A model generated the notes under the pieces. It worked only from the letters and a program-made list of their open reading frames with translations. It did not search any database and was not told where the DNA came from. A program made the position numbers and the translations under genes. Shown one piece after another: positions 1 through 38,329 of a stretch of 38,329 nt of DNA (the stretch's first letter is position 1; each line of letters opens with the position of its first letter). The stretch is from the UHGV virus genome UHGV-1488451; one strand, given 5' to 3'. This DNA comes from a virus.

Positions 1-75
1 GGACACCCACGCGTCGCCGGACACCCACGCGTCGCCGAACACCCACGCGTCGCCGGACACCCACGCGTCGCCGGA
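1..75. repeat. 18-bp tandem repeat array (4 units plus partial), unit ggacacccacgcgtcgcc with A/G variants; encodes hexapeptide repeats on minus strand
   Basis: Direct reading: units at 1-18, 19-36, 37-54, 55-72; same array family as 38008-38277. Confidence 0.9.
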
Positions 76-645
76 CAAGTTCGATTCCTTTTCAATGAAA
101 CCGCCGAGTTCGCCTTTATCCACATATCGGCTTGGGATGTTCTCGGTGGCTTGAATACGGTACAGCGTGCGGCCAAAGACCGTGATTGTTTCGTCAGTGA
201 GGCGGTACTTTCTTTCGCTCATTATTCTTTCCTTTTTGGTGAATCTTTCGATGCATCGGTTGATGTCGTCGATGGTGATGTTTCCCCAGGGTTCGTTGAT
301 GTCCCTGTCAAGTTGCGGGGTTCGTGCGGGGAGTGTTCCTCCTAATGCGTATGGACGTTGGTTGTTTTTTGGGGTGAATTTCATCGGGTGCGGCATGTTG
401 GATGCGCTGGCATGGTTGCTGAAAGTTCCTGGGATGATTTGCAGCAGCCCGACCCCGTGTTCTACTGGGGCGTTTTGGTCTCGAATAGGCGCTATTGCGG
501 GGCCTGATTCGGCTTGGATTTCCTCGAGCACCCGTTTTATGTGGATTGCGTTTAGGATTCTTTGGCAAATGAGAGCTGTTGCTTTGATTTTGAGAAGTTG
601 TTGCATTGCTGTTAGCGGCTCAAAACTGCGGATGGTGTTAGGCAT
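1..645 (-). CDS. N-terminal portion of SLT-like (lytic transglycosylase) domain protein fused to hexapeptide repeats; 3' end runs off window start
   Basis: Manual minus-strand translation is open from 819 down to position 1; in-frame ATG at 645 (also 765, 606, 222). Contains IQAESG...EHGVGLLQIIPGTF, closely matching the SLT motif inside the tape measure protein. Not in ORF track because no stop lies within the window. Confidence 0.5.
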   Translation of the reverse strand, partial: MPNTIRSFEPLTAMQQLLKIKATALICQRILNAIHIKRVLEEIQAESGPAIAPIRDQNAPVEHGVGLLQIIPGTFSNHASASNMPHPMKFTPKNNQRPYALGGTLPARTPQLDRDINEPWGNITIDDINRCIERFTKKERIMSERKYRLTDETITVFGRTLYRIQATENIPSRYVDKGELGGFIEKESNLSGDAWVSGDAWVFGDAWVSGDAWVS

Positions 646-910
646 GCTCCGTGGATGGTGCCGATGTTGGGGTTGGGGGTGAGGGCGTTTCGAATGGGGC
701 GGGCATTTTCTTTGGTCTTTCTTTGGTAGTGGTTTTGATGGTTTGAGGCCCCCTGTGTTGTTCATCCACTGTGGGGGCTTTGTGGCGTGGCGCGGGGTTG
801 CACCGCGCTTTTGTGCTGCTCACGCCTTTGCTGTGTTCTTTCTCGTGTTCGTTCCCTCCGGTTTTTGTCCGGGTTCCTGGTGTCCTTGCCGATGCTTTGC
901 GAGAGCTTCG

Positions 911-929
911 TCACGTTATCCCAACGTGA
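911..929. promoter_or_regulatory. Perfect inverted repeat TCACGTT-N5-AACGTGA in divergent intergenic region; operator candidate
   Basis: Seen directly; lies between leftward and rightward gene sets. Confidence 0.3.
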
Positions 930-1123
930 GGTAAGTATCTTTCACGAGGCAGCTAATTAAATTTTCACACATCATAAGGTTCTTTTTATCTTCCGCTTGT
1001 GTTGCTCTTAGCGGGCGATGACTTCATTTAAGACCAGCTGATCGAATCTTGCAACAGCCACCATCAAATGCCACCCCCGACCGCTACCCCCATTTGATTA
1101 AAAAACATTAATCTACCTGCCTC

Positions 1124-1154
1124 ATTGCATAGTGACCTCAAATGAGGTTACGCT
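1124..1154 (+). promoter_or_regulatory. Candidate promoter (TTGCAT, 18-bp spacer, TACGCT) with embedded palindrome ACCTCA-AA-TGAGGT (1135-1148); would give a near-leaderless transcript for the ORF at 1161
   Basis: -35/-10-like hexamers with 18-bp spacing ending 7 nt before the ATG at 1161; no strong SD upstream of that ATG. Confidence 0.3.
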
Positions 1155-1160
1155 GTAGGC

Positions 1161-1535
1161 ATGAGACACAAAGACTGGGTAGAAAACCTTATTGGCCCCG
1201 ACTCCATGCGCACAGCAGCAGCCAAACTTGGCCTATCCCCCGGCGCAGTGTCCCAGCAGATTAGCCGTGGAAGTTTGAAGCCAGACATGGTGATCGCGCT
1301 TTGCCGCGCTTATGGGCGGTCACCGATTGATGGGCTTGTAGAGACCGGGTTTCTTGAGCGGTTCGAGGCGGGCGCAGCTAGCCCTGCTTCGGCGCTTAGG
1401 GAGGCGACGAATCAGCAGATTCTTGGTGAGATTATGCGGCGTTCCGATGCTGATGCGGTGCGGCTATTTAGGGCTGAGGATGAGGATGTGGCGGTGTCGT
1501 CGCAGGTGAGGGCGGATGGTCCTTACAGTGATTGA
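1161..1535 (+). CDS. HTH DNA-binding protein, candidate immunity repressor/regulator
   Basis: 124 aa; HTH-like segment AAKLGLSPGAVSQQISRG; first gene of rightward arm next to palindromes. Confidence 0.5.
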   Translation: MRHKDWVENLIGPDSMRTAAAKLGLSPGAVSQQISRGSLKPDMVIALCRAYGRSPIDGLVETGFLERFEAGAASPASALREATNQQILGEIMRRSDADAVRLFRAEDEDVAVSSQVRADGPYSD

Positions 1536-1664
1536 CTGTAGTTACCCCTTTATTGGTGGGGTTGCTGAACTGCCATCTTGTTAATTGCAGAGTGGCGCTG
1601 TAATATAAATCTTGTAAGGCAAACAAGCCTCACGCCCACCTCAAACCCGAAAGGACCAAGACCA

Positions 1665-2000
1665 ATGACCACCATCACCCTCAACAACCTCGACTGGAAC
1701 ATCGCCCCCGCTGAATGGGGCATCGCATACGGCGAAATGGCAAGCCTCCCCACAGAAGAATCCACCCACAACGGCCCACAGTTCATTGTCGATTTCGATC
1801 TTGACGGCACCCGCAAAGCACGCCTCGCAGTAGACCCAACCATTGCTGGAATGAGCCGCGAAAAGGGCATGGCATTCAGCGACGACACCAACGATTGGCC
1901 AGTACTCGATGCACTGTTTGGGCGCGAACAATGGCAGCAATGGCTTGCTGACAAGACCGAGGAAATGCGCGCCCTAGACTCCGAAGACCTCGACGACTAA
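1665..2000 (+). CDS. Hypothetical protein
   Basis: ORF track 1578-2000; ATG at 1665 preceded by AAGGA at 9-nt spacing. Confidence 0.5.
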   Translation: MTTITLNNLDWNIAPAEWGIAYGEMASLPTEESTHNGPQFIVDFDLDGTRKARLAVDPTIAGMSREKGMAFSDDTNDWPVLDALFGREQWQQWLADKTEEMRALDSEDLDD

Positions 2001-2014
2001 CCACCATGCAAACC

Positions 2015-2034
2015 CCGGGGGCTTCGGCCCCTGG
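2015..2034 (+). terminator. Intergenic hairpin with UUCG-type tetraloop (GGGGC-TTCG-GCCCC)
   Basis: Seen directly; short T-run only, so may be an attenuator or stability element rather than a strong terminator. Confidence 0.3.
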
Positions 2035-2049
2035 ATTAAGGAACCAACA

Positions 2050-2346
2050 ATGAACACCCCCTACACCTTCAAGCACGTCATGTCAGGACGCTGGGAAGTC
2101 ATCCACAAAGGCAAAGCATTCGCAGTCATCGAGAGAAGCACCTGCTATTCCTCAAAAGACGGCATCATGGAATCAGCTGAATTGTGGGTAATCATTGACC
2201 CCGTAACTGAAATTCACCAGCAAGGGAAACTCCTGAACACCCTCTACCCGACTGAGTGGGGGCACCGCACCTACCGCGAGGCAGCAGCCACTGCCTGGGA
2301 AAACTACCAGAAATACGGCGCACCTGTTCCCATCGGACGAAACTAA
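2050..2346 (+). CDS. Hypothetical protein
   Basis: 98-aa ORF with AAGGAAC upstream of ATG. Confidence 0.5.
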   Translation: MNTPYTFKHVMSGRWEVIHKGKAFAVIERSTCYSSKDGIMESAELWVIIDPVTEIHQQGKLLNTLYPTEWGHRTYREAAATAWENYQKYGAPVPIGRN

Positions 2347-2392
2347 ACCAGACCCCCGCCACCATGCGGGGTTTCATGAAAAGGAAGCAATA

Positions 2393-2557
2393 ATGAACTG
2401 CGATATTCTTATCCTCGTTGTTATTATATCGAACTTAGCCATGCTGGCGGTATTATATCCGCGCGAAATGGATAGGGTACTCGATTCGTATATAGAAACT
2501 ATCCGCAATTGGATTCAGGCTATCTGCAAAATTTACAGGAAGGTGCACCGTGGATAA
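2393..2557 (+). CDS. Small hydrophobic protein (54 aa) in AT-rich islet
   Basis: ATG at 2393 preceded by AAAGGAAG; translation MNCDILILVVIISNLAMLAVLYPREMDR...; below the ORF-track length cutoff. Confidence 0.4.
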   Translation: MNCDILILVVIISNLAMLAVLYPREMDRVLDSYIETIRNWIQAICKIYRKVHRG

Positions 2558-2650
2558 TCAAACCCGAAACTCTGATGGTGTTTCTCGCCACAATCCCGCT
2601 TTGCCCACCAGTTCCCCGGCGGAGCGCGGGCGCATGGTTTATGATCAGGG

Positions 2651-2893
2651 GTGCCGCGTATGACCACCCCGCTCGTCGAAATCACGCTACCCGGCGGCGG
2701 GGTGGCCTGGTCCATCACCGCAGTGCTTGACCACACCGGCCTATCACAATCATCATTCACCGCATACGTTGCACGCGGACAAGCCCCCGCCCCCACCCAT
2801 CATGTTGAGCGCACTAGGCTATGGGACGCTAAGGAAATCAAAGCCTGGTGGGCAACCCGCCCCGGAAAACCCGGCCGCCCCGCACGAACCTAA
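2651..2893 (+). CDS. Excisionase-like HTH DNA-binding protein
   Basis: HTH-like core ITAVLDHTGLSQSSFTAYVARGQ followed by W-rich tail; directly upstream of integrase; start 2651 (GTG) or 2660 (ATG). Confidence 0.55.
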   Translation: MPRMTTPLVEITLPGGGVAWSITAVLDHTGLSQSSFTAYVARGQAPAPTHHVERTRLWDAKEIKAWWATRPGKPGRPART

Positions 2894-3010
2894 CCCAGCC
2901 CCCACCCCGCACGGTGGGGGCTTTCCGCATGACAAAACAATGCGGACACAAAACCCCCAATAATTAAATAAAAACCACATCTGACCTGCAACAATGCAAG
3001 GACAAAAACA

Positions 3011-4135
3011 ATGGCATCAATCAAACGATATGACACCGCCAAAGGAACAAAATGGCGCGTCCAATACCGCACCCCAGACGGCAAAAGCCGCACCAAAACC
3101 GGATTCCGCACCAAAAGCGAAGCCGAAAGATGGGTGGCCACACACACCACCTCCATCATCAATGGCACCTGGGTTGACCCCAACGCAGGCAACATAACCA
3201 TCCAGGCCCTCGGCACACGATGGATGGAAACCCGCACCCACCTGAAACCCTCAACAGCACGCGTCGAAGCCCTCGACTACAAAAACCACGTCCTCCCACA
3301 CTGGGGGCACCGGCGCATCAAAACTATCAAACCGTCGGAAGTGCAAGCCTGGGTGTCAGCCAGCGCCCAATCACCCTCAACCACCAGGCACCACCATGCG
3401 ATCTTGTCGAAGATTCTAGACATGGCCGTCCTCGACAACCTCATACCCGCGAACCCGGCTAAAAGCGTCACCCTGCCCCGCAAGAACAACCCAACAAAGG
3501 TGTACCTCACCATCAGCCAATTGAAGCGCCTAGCGGACGAGGCAACGGTTCGGGGTGAGCTGATCTGGCTGTTGGGAACCACTGGCCTTAGGTGGGGTGA
3601 GGCCGCTGGCTTGCAGGCGCAAGACTTGGACCCGCTGAACGGGCGCATCAGGGTGGCGAGGAACGCAGTAACGGTAGGGGGCGAGGTGGTTGTCGGAACC
3701 CCGAAAACTCATGAGCGGCGCACAGTGGCTTGCCCTGGGCATGTGATGGGGATGCTTGAAGATGCGGCACGTGGTAAGCCGCGCACCGGGTGGTTGTGGG
3801 AGTCGCCTGCGGGCGGGCCTATGCGGCTTCCGGGGAAGGGTTCTTTTTTTCATTCGGCGTTGGGGCGCGTGCGCGCCGAAGACCCGTCGTTTCCTTCGTT
3901 GACTATTCATGGTCTTAGGCATGTGGCAGCCGGACTTTTAGTTTCGGCGGGGGCGAATGTGAAGGTGGTGCAAAAGCAGCTTGGACACAAGTCTGCGGCT
4001 ATGACGTTGGATGTGTATGCGGAGTTGTTTGACGATGACTTGGATGCGGTGCGTGGGGCGTTGGATGCTTTGGTGGGTTCTTTGGGGAATGTCGTCAAAT
4101 TGTCGTCAAATCGGGGTTTTGGTGACGCGGTTTAG
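3011..4135 (+). CDS. int: Tyrosine integrase (phage integrase family)
   Basis: 374 aa; catalytic-domain motifs GLRWGEA, HGLRH, LGH...TLDVYAELF (R, H-x-x-R, H, Y); AAGGA before ATG. Confidence 0.9.
   Translation: MASIKRYDTAKGTKWRVQYRTPDGKSRTKTGFRTKSEAERWVATHTTSIINGTWVDPNAGNITIQALGTRWMETRTHLKPSTARVEALDYKNHVLPHWGHRRIKTIKPSEVQAWVSASAQSPSTTRHHHAILSKILDMAVLDNLIPANPAKSVTLPRKNNPTKVYLTISQLKRLADEATVRGELIWLLGTTGLRWGEAAGLQAQDLDPLNGRIRVARNAVTVGGEVVVGTPKTHERRTVACPGHVMGMLEDAARGKPRTGWLWESPAGGPMRLPGKGSFFHSALGRVRAEDPSFPSLTIHGLRHVAAGLLVSAGANVKVVQKQLGHKSAAMTLDVYAELFDDDLDAVRGALDALVGSLGNVVKLSSNRGFGDAV
4088..4110 (+). repeat. Direct repeat AATGTCGTCAAATTGTCGTCAAA (two TGTCGTCAAA half-units), copy 1; candidate integrase arm-type binding site
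   Basis: Exact 23-bp copy also at 4298-4320; the two copies flank the tRNA-like core. Confidence 0.45.
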
Positions 4136-4156
4136 GGGTTTGACCTTGGGTTTTTT

Positions 4157-4200
4157 TGGTGCCCCCAGTCGGACTCGAACCGACTTTCTGGGTTTTGTCC
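4157..4200 (-). other. attP-like core: 3' half of a tRNA gene (T-arm, acceptor 3' strand, discriminator, CCA) on minus strand
   Basis: Minus strand reads GTCGG-TTCGAGT-CCGAC-TGGGGGC-A-CCA; no matching 5' acceptor strand upstream, so not a complete tRNA. Confidence 0.55.
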
Positions 4201-4297
4201 ATACCGTTGTTTACCTGCATGTTTGCTGGTCAAGTGCGGTTTTTGCCGTGTAGCAACCCTGTTGAATTTGCGTGTATTTACGTGTGTTTTAGTGTGA

Positions 4298-4320
4298 AAT
4301 GTCGTCAAATTGTCGTCAAA
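4298..4320 (+). repeat. Direct repeat AATGTCGTCAAATTGTCGTCAAA, copy 2
   Basis: Exact match to 4088-4110. Confidence 0.45.
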
Positions 4321-4341
4321 AATGACCCCACCCCGAAACGC

Positions 4342-4384
4342 AAAAAACGCCCCCGCAACCACCAACAACGGTGGCGCGGGGGCG
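4342..4384 (-). terminator. Rho-independent terminator at end of leftward late/lysis operon
   Basis: 9-bp GC stem (CGCCCCCGC / GCGGGGGCG) followed on minus strand by a T6 tract (plus-strand A-run 4342-4347), just downstream of the last lysis gene. Confidence 0.5.
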
Positions 4385-4399
4385 CATCTTCACAAGGGG

Positions 4400-4912
4400 C
4401 TAAACCTCATCACGAGCCTGCTTAGCAAGCTCCCGAATGTCCGCCTGAATTATCTGCGGAATCACCGGCAAATCATCCGGACGCTTACCCGGCCACTTCC
4501 TCGACGCCCATTCCTCACGAGCCGCGATATGCTTCACAGCCGTGCGGTGACGTTGGTTGATGTCCGTCATGCGGGTGGTCAGGTCGGTGATCTGGGTGTC
4601 TTGATTGGTTAGCTTGGTGTGCATGTCTGTGACTTGCTGTGCGAGCCGGTCATGTTGCGCGGTCACGGTGTTCAGGGTGGTTTCCATCACCCCGACGGTG
4701 GCGGTTAGGTTGTTCACAATTTGTTGTGACTCGTCCAAGACTAGGCGTCTTTCCTCCACCTTCCCGTCAGCGTGCCCTTTGCGGTGCGCTGTCCACGCGG
4801 CAAGAATCACACTCACAGCGGTGGCGATGCCACCCACCCAGCCAACGATCTCACTGATGCTCACGGCCTCAGCCACCTGCGGTGGCGGCATTTGTGCCGC
4901 CAACCACCACAT
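4400..4912 (-). CDS. Membrane-anchored coiled-coil protein, lysis-associated
   Basis: 170 aa; one N-terminal TM segment (IVGWVGGIATAVSVILAAW) then heptad-like Q/T-rich region; last gene of lysis cassette. Confidence 0.45.
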   Translation of the reverse strand: MWWLAAQMPPPQVAEAVSISEIVGWVGGIATAVSVILAAWTAHRKGHADGKVEERRLVLDESQQIVNNLTATVGVMETTLNTVTAQHDRLAQQVTDMHTKLTNQDTQITDLTTRMTDINQRHRTAVKHIAAREEWASRKWPGKRPDDLPVIPQIIQADIRELAKQARDEV

Positions 4913-4915
4913 GGC

Positions 4916-5263
4916 TTACCCCTGGTGAGAGTCAAACGTTGGAAGCGGTGCCTCCTGAGAAGCCGCATCAACTGCGGCTGCCTCATCAGACACACGCTCC
5001 ACAACCGACGGAGTGATGCTGCCCTTCATGGAAGCCTGAATGACAACACCTGCGGCACCTGCGATGACAGCCACGACAGCGGCAACATCAGCGGGCAGCT
5101 GGCCAGCCATGAGGCCAACAACACTCAGCACCTGCAGCACCGCCTGGGCAGCTGCGACCAGGGTGTTCTTGCGGCGCGCGAACCACGGCTGCTCAGCAAG
5201 CAGGTTCGTTGCGGCCTCTTCGATGATCTGCACGGACTTGGAATTCAGGTTATGGCGTGCCAT
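4916..5263 (-). CDS. Holin-like protein with two TM segments
   Basis: 115 aa; hydrophobic segments LVAAAQAVLQVLSVVGLMAG and VAAVVAVIAGAAGVVI; immediately downstream of endolysin. Confidence 0.55.
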   Translation of the reverse strand: MARHNLNSKSVQIIEEAATNLLAEQPWFARRKNTLVAAAQAVLQVLSVVGLMAGQLPADVAAVVAVIAGAAGVVIQASMKGSITPSVVERVSDEAAAVDAASQEAPLPTFDSHQG

Positions 5264-32573: not shown

Positions 32574-32590
32574 GGCAAAAACAAATACTG

Positions 32591-37481: not shown

Positions 37482-37727
37482 TTAGATGTTGACAAGATCG
37501 AACCACCCGACCAGGTAGTCTGAGTCGCCCATCATGGTTGCAATGCGGAGGGCGTCGGCGGCGGTGACGTATTTCCGGCCATGCCTAAAAAGCTCCAAAT
37601 CCGATACCTGGTATCCGAGTGTGGCCGCCAACCGTTCATCGGTGTTCAGGTTCAGCATGTGCGCAATGTTTTCTAGCGCGCCGCGCCGGAATCGGTATTT
37701 AGGCGCGGTCATTGTCATCACTGTCAT
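37482..37727 (-). CDS. Small HTH DNA-binding protein (Cro/XRE-like candidate)
   Basis: 81 aa; HTH-like segment RLAATLGYQVSDLELFRHGRKYVTAADALRIA. Confidence 0.5.
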   Translation of the reverse strand: MTVMTMTAPKYRFRRGALENIAHMLNLNTDERLAATLGYQVSDLELFRHGRKYVTAADALRIATMMGDSDYLVGWFDLVNI

Positions 37728-38329
37728 TGGCTTCTCCTTTGTCTTCCTTCTCTGGTTTCCATGATTCGGCGCGAATGGCGATCATGTCGTGGATTGCTTG
37801 GTATTCGGCTTGCCAGCGTTCTTGTGTGGCTTCGTCGTGGCGCTTCCAGTAGTTGGCGCGGCGTTCGGCGACGGCTTGCATCATTGTGGTTAGGGTGCCT
37901 TCCCAGCATCCGATGCAGACGAATATTTCATCGGTTCCGGTGTGCGCCGCAGTTACCCAGCGGCTTTCTACTCCTGCAGGGCCAGCAACGAAGATGTGTT
38001 GTTTTTGGAACACCTCCGCGTTGCCGGACACCCGCGCGTTGCCGGACACCCACGCGTTGCCGGACACCCGCGCGTTGCCGGACACCCACGCGTTGCCGGA
38101 CACCCGCGCGTCGCCGGACACCCACGCGTTGCCGGACACCCACGCGTCGCCGGACACCCACGCGTCGCCGAACACCCACGCGTCGCCGAACACCCGCGCG
38201 TCGCCGGACACCCACGCGTTGCCGGACACCCACGCGTCGCCGAACACCCGCGCGTCGCCGGACACCCACGCGTTGCCGGACAAGTTCGATTCCTTTTCAA
38301 TGAAACCGCCGAGTTCGCCTTTATCCACA
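37699..38329 (-). CDS. C-terminal portion of hexapeptide-repeat protein (about 15 repeats plus about 95-aa C-terminal domain); 5' end continues beyond window end
   Basis: ORF-track GTG at 38328 is an edge artefact; the frame remains open to the window edge and matches the N-terminal part at window start. Confidence 0.6.
   Translation of the reverse strand, partial: VDKGELGGFIEKESNLSGNAWVSGDARVFGDAWVSGNAWVSGDARVFGDAWVFGDAWVSGDAWVSGNAWVSGDARVSGNAWVSGNARVSGNAWVSGNARVSGNAEVFQKQHIFVAGPAGVESRWVTAAHTGTDEIFVCIGCWEGTLTTMMQAVAERRANYWKRHDEATQERWQAEYQAIHDMIAIRAESWKPEKEDKGEANDSDDNDRA
38008..38277. repeat. 18-bp tandem repeat array, about 15 units with A/G and C/T variants, encoding [W/R]V[S/F]G[D/N]A hexapeptides
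   Basis: Direct reading; protein NAWVSG DARVFG DAWVSG ... NARVSG. Confidence 0.9.

Follow-up and report, generated by a model that had tools for sequence, protein, structure and literature searches.

In phage lambda, the operator region OR carries the promoters PRM and PR back to back between the divergent genes cI and cro, and three tandem 17-bp palindromic operators lie over these promoters. The lambda repressor combines the helix-turn-helix (HTH) fold of the lambda/XRE family with an S24 peptidase (RecA-cleavage) domain, and its mRNA from the maintenance promoter is leaderless, beginning at the AUG. A similar arrangement has been described in the actinophages BPs and Brujita, in which rep and int point one way and cro the other, and a control region of ~200 bp holds the divergent promoters P_Rep and P_R with a 12-bp operator over the promoter (PMC3694055). 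Here, we analyse the intergenic region between the divergent genes at one end of the virus genome UHGV-1488451, a stretch of 38,329 bp (the window, always meant at its full length), which is the complete, circularly permuted genome of a temperate phage. Its host genus is placed by homologues as Corynebacterium, and the phage would be a temperate Corynebacterium siphophage. Corynephage prophages are frequent in Corynebacterium of skin, clinical and industrial origin, and to our knowledge the switches of temperate corynephages are essentially uncharacterised.

We consider it likely that the 395 bp between the leftward start codon at 765 and the rightward one at 1161 form a lambda-type lysis/lysogeny switch, in which a leaderless repressor mRNA is made from a promoter termed P_rep, the repressor binds an operator in the spacer of that promoter, a second promoter (P_L) points leftwards, conserved boxes occupy the middle, and the leader of the leftward transcript acts at the RNA level. 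Judged from its sequence, the layout corresponds to a lambda-type CI/Cro switch, with a likeness to the switches of actinophages, for example that of BPs. The repressor and Cro-like genes diverge (with a 1.9-kb cassette between them in the window), and the repressor carries a lambda/XRE-type HTH. P_rep has a perfect palindrome, P_L a match to the P_rep core in only 12 of 16 positions (P ~0.1); in most relatives a motif duplicated at the two promoters is significant. The elements concerned are given below (+, rightward; -, leftward; aa, amino acids; nt, nucleotides; TSS, transcription start site).

766-1160: full control region, 395 bp, from the ATG at 765 (-) to the ATG at 1161 (+).
1125-1154 (+): P_rep, with the -35 hexamer TTGCAT at 1125-1130, an 18-nt spacer and the -10 hexamer TACGCT at 1149-1154, then 6 nt to the ATG at 1161.
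1133-1150: candidate operator O_R, TGACCTCA-AA-TGAGGTTA, with a perfect core at 1135-1148; it fills the spacer of P_rep.
1161-1535 (+): gene for a 124-aa XRE/lambda-type HTH protein, the candidate prophage repressor and first gene of the rep...xis-int operon.
1115-1120 (+): ACCTGC box, 4 nt upstream of the -35 hexamer of P_rep; found at -47/-46 in nearly every relative, irrespective of operator class.
1096-1113: inverted repeat GATTAA-AAAACA-TTAATC with an A-tract, specific to the clade of the window and absent in relatives.
1073-1078 and 1086-1091 (+): tandem ACCCCC boxes with 13-bp spacing, between the divergent promoters.
1026-1054 (-): P_L, the candidate leftward early promoter, with the -35 hexamer TTGCAA at 1054 to 1049, a 17-nt spacer and the -10 hexamer TTAAAT at 1031 to 1026; predicted TSS at ~1019-1014.
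1019-1026 (+): candidate O_L half-site TGACTTCA, overlapping the -10/+1 of P_L.
37482-37727 (-): gene for an 81-aa HTH protein, the Cro-like partner (PHROG 638, transcriptional regulator).

In the mechanism that we propose, P_rep (TTGCAT-18-TACGCT) would start transcription at the A of ATG 1161 and yield a leaderless mRNA for the 124-aa repressor, followed by four small open reading frames (ORFs) and the integrase. The 14-18-bp palindrome at 1133-1150 would be bound by an HTH dimer, for which the repressor is the most likely candidate, and its occupancy would block RNA polymerase and thereby cap repressor synthesis. The half-site at the -10/+1 of the leftward promoter would be a second operator-like sequence, and P_L would drive a leftward transcript through a stem-looped leader into the 1.9-kb cassette that lies before cro. 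As first described, in an earlier note written from the letters of this DNA, the feature is an ordinary immunity region; the ACCCCC boxes and the ultraconserved leader are unexplained extras. P_L, the ACCCCC and ACCTGC boxes and the origin of the leftward gene by insertion had all been missed at that stage.

The likeness to lambda lies in the divergent promoters, the lambda/XRE-fold repressor and the palindromic operator over a promoter, but the two systems differ in several respects. One perfect palindrome with half-sites stands in place of the three tandem operators, and the promoters are ~140 bp apart with C-rich boxes between them. The integrase gene lies downstream of the repressor gene in the same direction, and the cassette and a leader of ~250 nt separate the early promoter from cro. 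The leaderless start of the repressor mRNA, established in lambda, is here deduced from conservation. The repressor has 124 aa without an S24 peptidase or RecA-cleavage domain (no Pfam match to Peptidase_S24 was found in it), so that induction must work in another way. With BPs and Brujita the locus shares an actinobacterial host, the directions of rep and int versus cro, the divergent promoters and a short operator overlapping a promoter. It differs from them in that four ORFs, one of them Xis-like, separate rep (1161-1535) from int (3011-4135), and in that the core of the phage attachment site (attP) lies downstream of int and not inside rep; integration-dependent immunity of the BPs type therefore does not apply. 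In sequence, the proteins of the window also have no relatives in the phage DNA collection that was searched, and no DNA similarity to known phages was found by megablast of 1-4300 or by blastn of 640-1165 against that collection.

For comparison, ~25 homologous loci with 36-55% protein identity were collected, 22 of them non-redundant, and their upstream regions were aligned on the start codon. These loci carry L numbers below, and L001-L004, L038 and L039 share the cassette of the window and belong to its clade. ATG 765 is kept in all seven clade members examined, and an alternative start at 645 was ruled out because it is lost in two of them (L001 and L038). With ATG 765 as the start of the leftward ORF, the intergenic region spans 766-1160, and the limits of 820-1160 given in the earlier note were wrong. 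The AT-richness reported for it is real in the right-hand part, with a GC content of 43.7% in 930-1160 as against 58.5% in 766-929 and 57.3% in the whole window.

The geometry of P_rep is conserved well beyond the clade. A TAnnnT hexamer ends 6-7 nt upstream of the ATG in 20 of the 22 loci, compared with a background of ~4% per locus, and the (A)TTGC of the -35 is kept 17-18 nt further upstream across the relatives. The start codon itself is fixed by the N-terminus of the protein, M-x-x-x-(D/E)-W, which aligns family-wide. No Shine-Dalgarno (SD) sequence stands in range of the repressor ATG in any locus examined, and the window's only GAGG lies 13 nt from ATG 1161, within the palindrome; the divergent cro-like genes, unlike the repressor genes, all have a GGAGG SD. 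Within 1123-1160, only columns 1123, 1137 and 1160 vary in an alignment of 11 clade sequences. In Corynebacterium glutamicum, 97% of sigma-A promoters have a TAnnnT, located 3-11 nt from the TSS, and 33% of mRNAs lack a leader (PMC3890552). One such example in Corynebacterium is the bca gene (PMC4847777). The leaderless sigma-A transcripts described in these two studies have the same hexamer 6-7 nt from a TSS at the AUG and no ribosome-binding site, whereas the start at P_rep is predicted from conservation. With a -10 hexamer that places the TSS at the start codon, and without an SD, the repressor mRNA is very probably leaderless, its predicted TSS being the A of ATG 1161. The leaderless rightward start suggested earlier thus agrees well with the family-wide comparison.

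The 124-aa protein is a good candidate for the repressor. Its homologues come from Corynebacterium genomes and prophage-like viral contigs, and it matches PHROG repressor/HTH families, with weak Pfam matches to HTH_3 and HTH_1. Substitutions in its gene are predominantly synonymous (50 versus 9 non-synonymous), as expected under purifying selection. In an AlphaFold model, residues ~1-65 form five helices in an XRE/lambda-repressor fold and can be superposed on ClgR, P22 c2 and lambda cI (probability 0.96-1.0, root-mean-square deviation ~2.2 A, Foldseek E 0.08-0.5), and the C-terminal 50 aa are predicted to be disordered. The 81-aa HTH protein has homologues encoded by the gene directly divergent from the repressor in ~16 relatives, where the two genes are 160-190 bp apart and the cro-like gene has its GGAGG SD. 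The two HTH proteins that had been named as possible binders, those encoded at 1161 and 37482, are therefore the right candidates by similarity, one with an XRE/lambda fold and repressor-like, the other Cro-like.

The palindrome between the hexamers of P_rep is as first reported: ACCTCA-AA-TGAGGT at 1135-1148, with perfect 6-bp arms, between -35-like and -10-like sequences and at the distance from the ATG described. It extends to TGACCTCAAATGAGGTTA at 1133-1150, so that the 18-nt spacer of P_rep is almost wholly palindrome, and from this position a bound protein must exclude RNA polymerase from P_rep. Of 21 loci, 6 have a palindrome with arms of 6 bp or longer in the P_rep core, compared with 1.6 expected (P=0.002), and in L026, L032 and L033 its position is comparable. 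The only clade variant within O_R, C1137T in L038, turns the left arm into TGACTTCA, the half-site at P_L. Most relatives carry a second copy of a phage-specific motif of the P_rep core at the leftward promoter, at a distance of ~83-103 bp; P is <=0.05 in roughly half of the relatives and <0.1 in the majority. In the window four of the nine occurrences of T[GAT]AC[CT]TCA fall within 927-1150. One of these operator-like half-sites is weakly supported:

927-934 (-): operator-like half-site TTACCTCA, overlapping the right arm of the inverted repeat at 911-929.

Across the family, the identity of the P_rep core block (-42 to -8, which includes the operator position) tracks that of the repressor N-terminus (Mantel P=0.003) but not that of the Cro-like protein (P=0.12). 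Taken together, these comparisons indicate that the palindrome at 1135-1148 is probably the operator of the repressor, at least an autoregulatory one, and the operator role suggested for it in the earlier note gains from its position in the spacer and from the analogues in relatives.

The main rival to this assignment is binding by the Cro-like 81-aa protein, which would shut off repressor synthesis in lytic growth, the repressor acting instead through the P_L half-sites or the conserved boxes. The only perfect palindrome does lie on P_rep, where binding can only repress synthesis of the repressor, and the P_L site is degenerate; moreover, in lambda, OR3 is the site that Cro occupies first, which turns off PRM. 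The co-variation runs the other way, however. The Cro-like proteins of L006, L008, L009, L016 and L019 are 85-94% identical, yet their spacer motifs are unrelated (14-57% identity), and similar repressors share a motif even though the accompanying Cro-like proteins are only 53-61% identical, in line with the two Mantel results. We regard binding by the Cro-like protein as unlikely, although it deserves to be kept in view. Two other candidates were set aside. A near-palindrome in the P_L spacer, GAyCAGCTGrTC, was ruled out as an operator by clade variants at 1032, 1034, 1037 and 1038, and a DtxR box was dismissed, without formal test, on an order of half-sites inverted with respect to the consensus TTAGGTTAGCCTAACCTAA. 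As a separate observation, L009 (C. hiratae) has at ~2900-3000 a perfect palindrome, GGTTCAT(A/T)ATGAACC, overlapping the repressor -10, with one or two more copies over the cro promoter, which makes it a good model locus for the operator logic of the family.

Between the divergent promoters, the relatives share a fixed order of elements. Read leftward from the ATG, these are P_rep, ACCTGC (-47), two ACCCC boxes (-66 and -79), a second promoter block, a conserved 5' leader block, and the SD with cro; the window holds counterparts of these shared elements. The ACCCC boxes are found in ~18 Corynebacterium prophage switches (L006-L029) of different operator classes, and they stand exactly at -79/-66 in most relatives and at -88/-75 in the clade of the window. 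This shift comes from the inverted repeat at 1096-1113 (GATTAA-N6-TTAATC), a third perfect one that had been overlooked: the clade-specific sequence ATTAAAAAACATTAATC adds approximately one helical turn and so moves the boxes. Positions 1097-1113 are invariant in 11 clade sequences. Within the clade alignment the C-boxes are kept, and the 7 nt between them and their flanks vary freely, a pattern like that of a footprint. Both boxes (ACCCCCG at 1073-1079 and ACCCCCA at 1086-1092) fit AC(4-5)D, one strand of the low-information consensus AC(4-5)D / HG(4-6)Y for RamA (PMC5014011), also given as A/T/C-CCCC-N (PMC4847777). They probably form the site of a conserved factor, for which host RamA and the conserved Cro-like protein appear equally viable. 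RamA is a LuxR-type global carbon regulator of C. glutamicum, and the likeness to its sites consists in tandem, consensus-fitting boxes upstream of a -35; in contrast, the hosts here are other Corynebacterium species, RamA binding is predicted from the motif, and the Cro-like protein is an alternative binder. Were the boxes RamA sites, the whole prophage family would couple its lysis/lysogeny decision to the carbon status of the host.

P_L is predicted by homology to be the leftward early promoter, ~140 bp from P_rep. In 16 relatives it has an aligned counterpart in the promoter block that precedes the cro-like gene and would drive that gene directly, and the hexamers of P_L are invariant in the 11 clade sequences. 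The sequence TCACCGGCGCAGAA... corresponds to the conserved 5' block of the cro leaders of relatives; considered as a possible covarying hairpin, this block has pairings that are inconsistent in the alignment by eye. In the clade of the window, ~1.9 kb have been inserted between the switch and the Cro-like gene, consisting of a clade-specific leader of ~210 nt, an ORF of unknown function and a beta-solenoid ORF.

224-765 (-): first ORF of the cassette, in frame with a YdcK-type beta-solenoid ORF that crosses the ends of the window (1-223 / 37699-38328).

This leftward gene had been described as SLT/hexapeptide. The hexapeptide part is real and corresponds to the YdcK beta-solenoid; the SLT part found no support, since no SLT or lysozyme-like profile matched the ORF in Pfam (even at E<=1) or PHROG, and a short ES...GLLQI resemblance was seen by eye only. 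The two ORFs form a single frame in the window and in L001-L004, and are separate, overlapping genes in L038 and L039, split by indels of 1 or 2 nt near 225-233 that leave a first ORF of 181-182 aa. Substitutions in 224-765 (34 synonymous, 36 non-synonymous, with an excess at third positions) are of a coding type. The first 40 codons (765 to 646) have 4 synonymous versus 18 non-synonymous changes and no coding-type constraint; L001 has a 30-nt in-frame insertion in this stretch, and L002 an in-frame stop within the ORF. The sole consensus promoter match near the region, TTCACA-17-TATCTT at 964-992, is on the + strand and points rightward; its transcript would run antisense to the start of the P_L RNA and on towards the repressor gene, like one from P_RE. 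L004 lacks the last T of the -10 of this promoter.

The leader of the predicted P_L transcript lies in a block that is conserved to an unusual degree among 11 clade sequences from independent samples, and it is predicted to fold into five local stem-loops.

742-1031: ultraconserved block, comprising the P_L -10, an untranslated leader of ~250 nt and the first codons of the cassette ORF.
993-1014 (-): stem-loop A, CCGCU-N12-AGCGG, close to the predicted start of the P_L transcript; its four variable sites (1001, 1002, 1005 and 1006) are all in the loop.
911-929 (-): stem-loop B, formed by the first inverted repeat of the earlier note; 7-bp stem and pentaloop, with invariant arms and the sole variant (921) in the loop.
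858-872 (-): stem-loop C, CCGG-N7-CCGG; sole variant (868) in the loop.
790-808 (-): stem-loop D, GCGCGG-N7-CCGCGC; stem without variation, TTTTG next to it on the + strand, terminator-like.
748-778 (-): stem-loop E, GCCCCC-N19-GGGGGC; the loop holds ATG 765 and the sole variant (756).

Variable columns make up 15 of 290 in 742-1031 (5.2%), 26% in 1032-1160, 30% in the repressor gene and 67 of 125 (54%) of its third codon positions; the difference between the block and these third positions is large (p=6e-28). In the 11 contigs the block is 98-99% identical and its flanks 88-96%. A conserved protein does not explain this pattern. A 1-nt deletion at 813 is polymorphic, being present in 4 of the 11 sequences, which rules out any ORF spanning it on either strand, and together with a non-coding codon score it excludes a conserved ORF in the block. 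ORF19 (975 to 919) lies in invariant DNA, one of its start codons being lost in L042 and L043, and an ORF of ~18 codons near 1064 had no coding signal in its substitutions. The stem-loops are present in both the minimum-free-energy and the centroid structures of the minus-strand RNA. Of the 15 variable sites, 7 are in the 52 loop nt, none in the 56 stem nt and 8 in the other 182 nt (Fisher p=0.005), a distribution compatible with selection acting on the structure. Read on the + strand, D and E form two tandem hairpins with short T-runs at 746-809 that resemble rightward terminators; no + gene or promoter lies upstream of them.

The inverted repeat at 911-929, TCACGTT-ATCCC-AACGTGA, has the perfect 7-bp arms and 5-nt loop reported earlier, but the part in divergent promoter control assigned to it does not stand. 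It lies ~90-110 nt inside the leftward transcript, counted from the predicted P_L start, in clade-specific DNA without a counterpart in relatives, and behaves like a conserved leader stem-loop. It is most likely an RNA-level element, acting on stability, translation or transcription, and not a DNA operator of the divergent promoters. Going further, 766-1031 (~265 nt), nearly invariant although the genes on its flanks differ by 5-12% among the 11 phage genomes, may be a new cis-acting regulatory RNA of the early operon, a put-like or translation-gating leader that would control the cassette and read-through to cro and the replication genes; this we put forward tentatively, as a possibility that falls well short of probable. 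Other roles of the leader could be stabilisation of the 5' end, or DNA binding sites. It resembles the lambda nut/N and HK022 put leaders in being promoter-proximal, hairpin-rich and untranslated, with a strong terminator further downstream, and differs from them in having no N-like gene, no sequence or Rfam similarity, and five hairpins over ~250 nt in place of a two-stem put. Rfam 15 had no relevant match at E<=1 in 1-5000 on either strand. Scans of viral and metagenome sequences for diverged copies of the leader gave the same clade only, with six more contigs.

The near-invariance of 742-1031 could instead reflect recent recombinational spread or gene conversion among co-circulating phages and not function. 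Phage genomes are mosaic, shifts in composition within the repressor and integrase genes suggest recombination joints, and no compensatory base changes were seen. Against this, the 11 sequences keep their high identity here between two less conserved flanks although the samples are independent; the variable sites are non-randomly placed, in loops and never in stems; and the indel at 813 segregates within the block, which is thus not a single recent copy. We consider recombination unlikely as the explanation, to much the same degree as the Cro-like protein at the palindrome.

A DNA-level role has also to be weighed for 911-929, as the operator of a cassette-specific promoter in 935-975; the cassette would then be expressed and controlled independently, like a moron. 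The minus strand offers candidates in an extended -10-like TGTGAAAAT (969 to 961) and in GATACT (942 to 937), from which 911-929 would lie at about +1 to +20; the repeat overlaps the half-site at 934 to 927, the stretch 935-975 is AT-rich, and the cassette has been inserted when compared with the rest of the family. The promoter-like strings are weak, however, and were not called on the minus strand by the scanner, the whole block is equally conserved, and 911-929 is unrelated to O_R save for the adjacent half-site. On balance such a promoter appears improbable, and the RNA-level reading of 911-929 is preferred.

It is somewhat less probable again that the palindromes are chance features without a binding role, and that the switch is controlled through the conserved boxes or unrecognised asymmetric sites. 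In the window, 107 inverted repeats have arms of 6 bp or longer (2.8 per kb), one with 7 bp or longer arises in ~12% of shuffles of the region, neither the 911-929 nor the 1135-1148 palindrome has a second copy elsewhere in the 38 kb, and most relatives have no strong palindrome at the same place. Counted jointly, with the nested 6-bp form of 911-929 included, the repeats number 4 versus 0.62 expected (P of at least the observed number 0.0135 for 820-1160 and 0.0085 for 766-1160). Single palindromes are thus not beyond chance, and the region as a whole is, weakly, mildly enriched. The case for the palindromes rests on position and on comparison with relatives, not on the palindromes themselves: that at 1135-1148 exactly fills the promoter spacer, is enriched at this position in the family, and is invariant in 11 sequences except for the one change that recreates the P_L half-site, and variation at 911-929 is restricted to the loop. 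Two long-range complementarities, between 666-681 and 1072-1087 and between 946-965 and 1104-1123, were judged to be due to chance, the second being weaker in other clade members.

Further along the early operon, a terminator-like hairpin, CCACCCCC...GGGGGTGG, lies at 32590 to 32545 (-), between the SSB gene, which it directly follows, and the gene for the replication initiator, with -28 kcal/mol followed by UUUUG. As predicted from its sequence, it shows that the early operon contains a barrier. A scanner reported no convincing intrinsic terminator on the minus strand of the early region, its limit on loop size making it miss this hairpin. A lambda N/nut-like module, with the Arg-rich 50-codon ORF at 914 to 762 ('NRRERTRERTQQRREQHK') as N, the 911-929 hairpin as boxB and read-through of the post-SSB terminator as its outcome, would accord with the very basic product of this ORF, the overlap of its stop with ATG 765 as ATGA, the 7-bp stem with its 5-nt loop GGGAU (GAGAU in L038) and the hairpin and U-run downstream, but it is very improbable, as the frame is broken by the 813 deletion, its codon score is -0.14 compared with 0.26 +/- 0.14 for real genes with no frame preference, and it was never called by gene callers and has no homologue or family match.

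Several observations weigh against the interpretation of 766-1160 as a lambda-type switch as it has been set out here. Each palindrome, taken alone, is within chance, and many relatives carry motifs that are asymmetric and not palindromic. The promoters are moderate matches: TACGCT with an 18-nt spacer is not a strong combination, the -10 of P_L is ambiguous (an alternative, TGAAGT, lies at 1026 to 1021), and a consensus scanner called neither P_rep nor P_L. The best counterpart of the P_rep core at the P_L -10, at 1021-1036, is the match of only 12 in 16 given above; the only perfect site thus lies on the repressor's own promoter, which would be odd if the repressor mainly silences P_L. Physical linkage confounds the co-variation of spacer motif and repressor. 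The consensus AC(4-5)D carries little information, and ACCCCC occurs 38 times in the window. The 11 leader sequences have no compensatory changes, which leaves the structure unproven, and recombinational homogenisation could mimic the pattern of conservation. Finally, searches of the literature turned up no work on this repressor family or on the switches of corynephages.

The locus and its ~20 relatives provide a comparative map of one switch family, with a probably leaderless promoter, phage-specific candidate operators at both promoters and C-rich boxes in fixed phase. The ultraconserved leader is a candidate for a new phage RNA element, and engineering of Corynebacterium could make use of the pair of promoter and operator as a compact repressible part.

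The remainder of the genome is arranged around the switch. On the minus strand, from 38329 down to ~4400, the early genes are followed by those for terminase, portal, capsid, a 2171-aa tape measure, and lysin with holin; the early genes encode the 81-aa HTH protein, an HTH_17 protein, a YqaJ exonuclease, RecT, SSB, a replication initiator, RusA and HNH. The plus strand has the 124-aa HTH gene, three small ORFs, the Xis-like gene and the tyrosine integrase gene at 3011-4135. The last 49 nt of the window (38281-38329) are a copy of 76-124, and its ends split the 18-bp tandem repeats (GDAWVS-type) of the YdcK-type beta-solenoid gene. The GDAWVS repeat units are slightly different at the two ends, as expected from assembly collapse. 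A candidate attachment site follows the integrase gene:

~4157-4200, downstream of int: attP core, resembling a tRNA 3' end (reverse complement of a tRNA T-arm, acceptor stem and CCA).

ARAGORN found no complete tRNA at 4100-4330. Three copies of TGTCGTCAAA (4101, 4301 and 4312) flank the core and resemble arm-type sites of integrases. Sharp shifts in GC and AT skew occur at ~1300, inside the repressor gene, and at ~3500, inside the integrase gene, and suggest that these positions may be joints of mosaic recombination.

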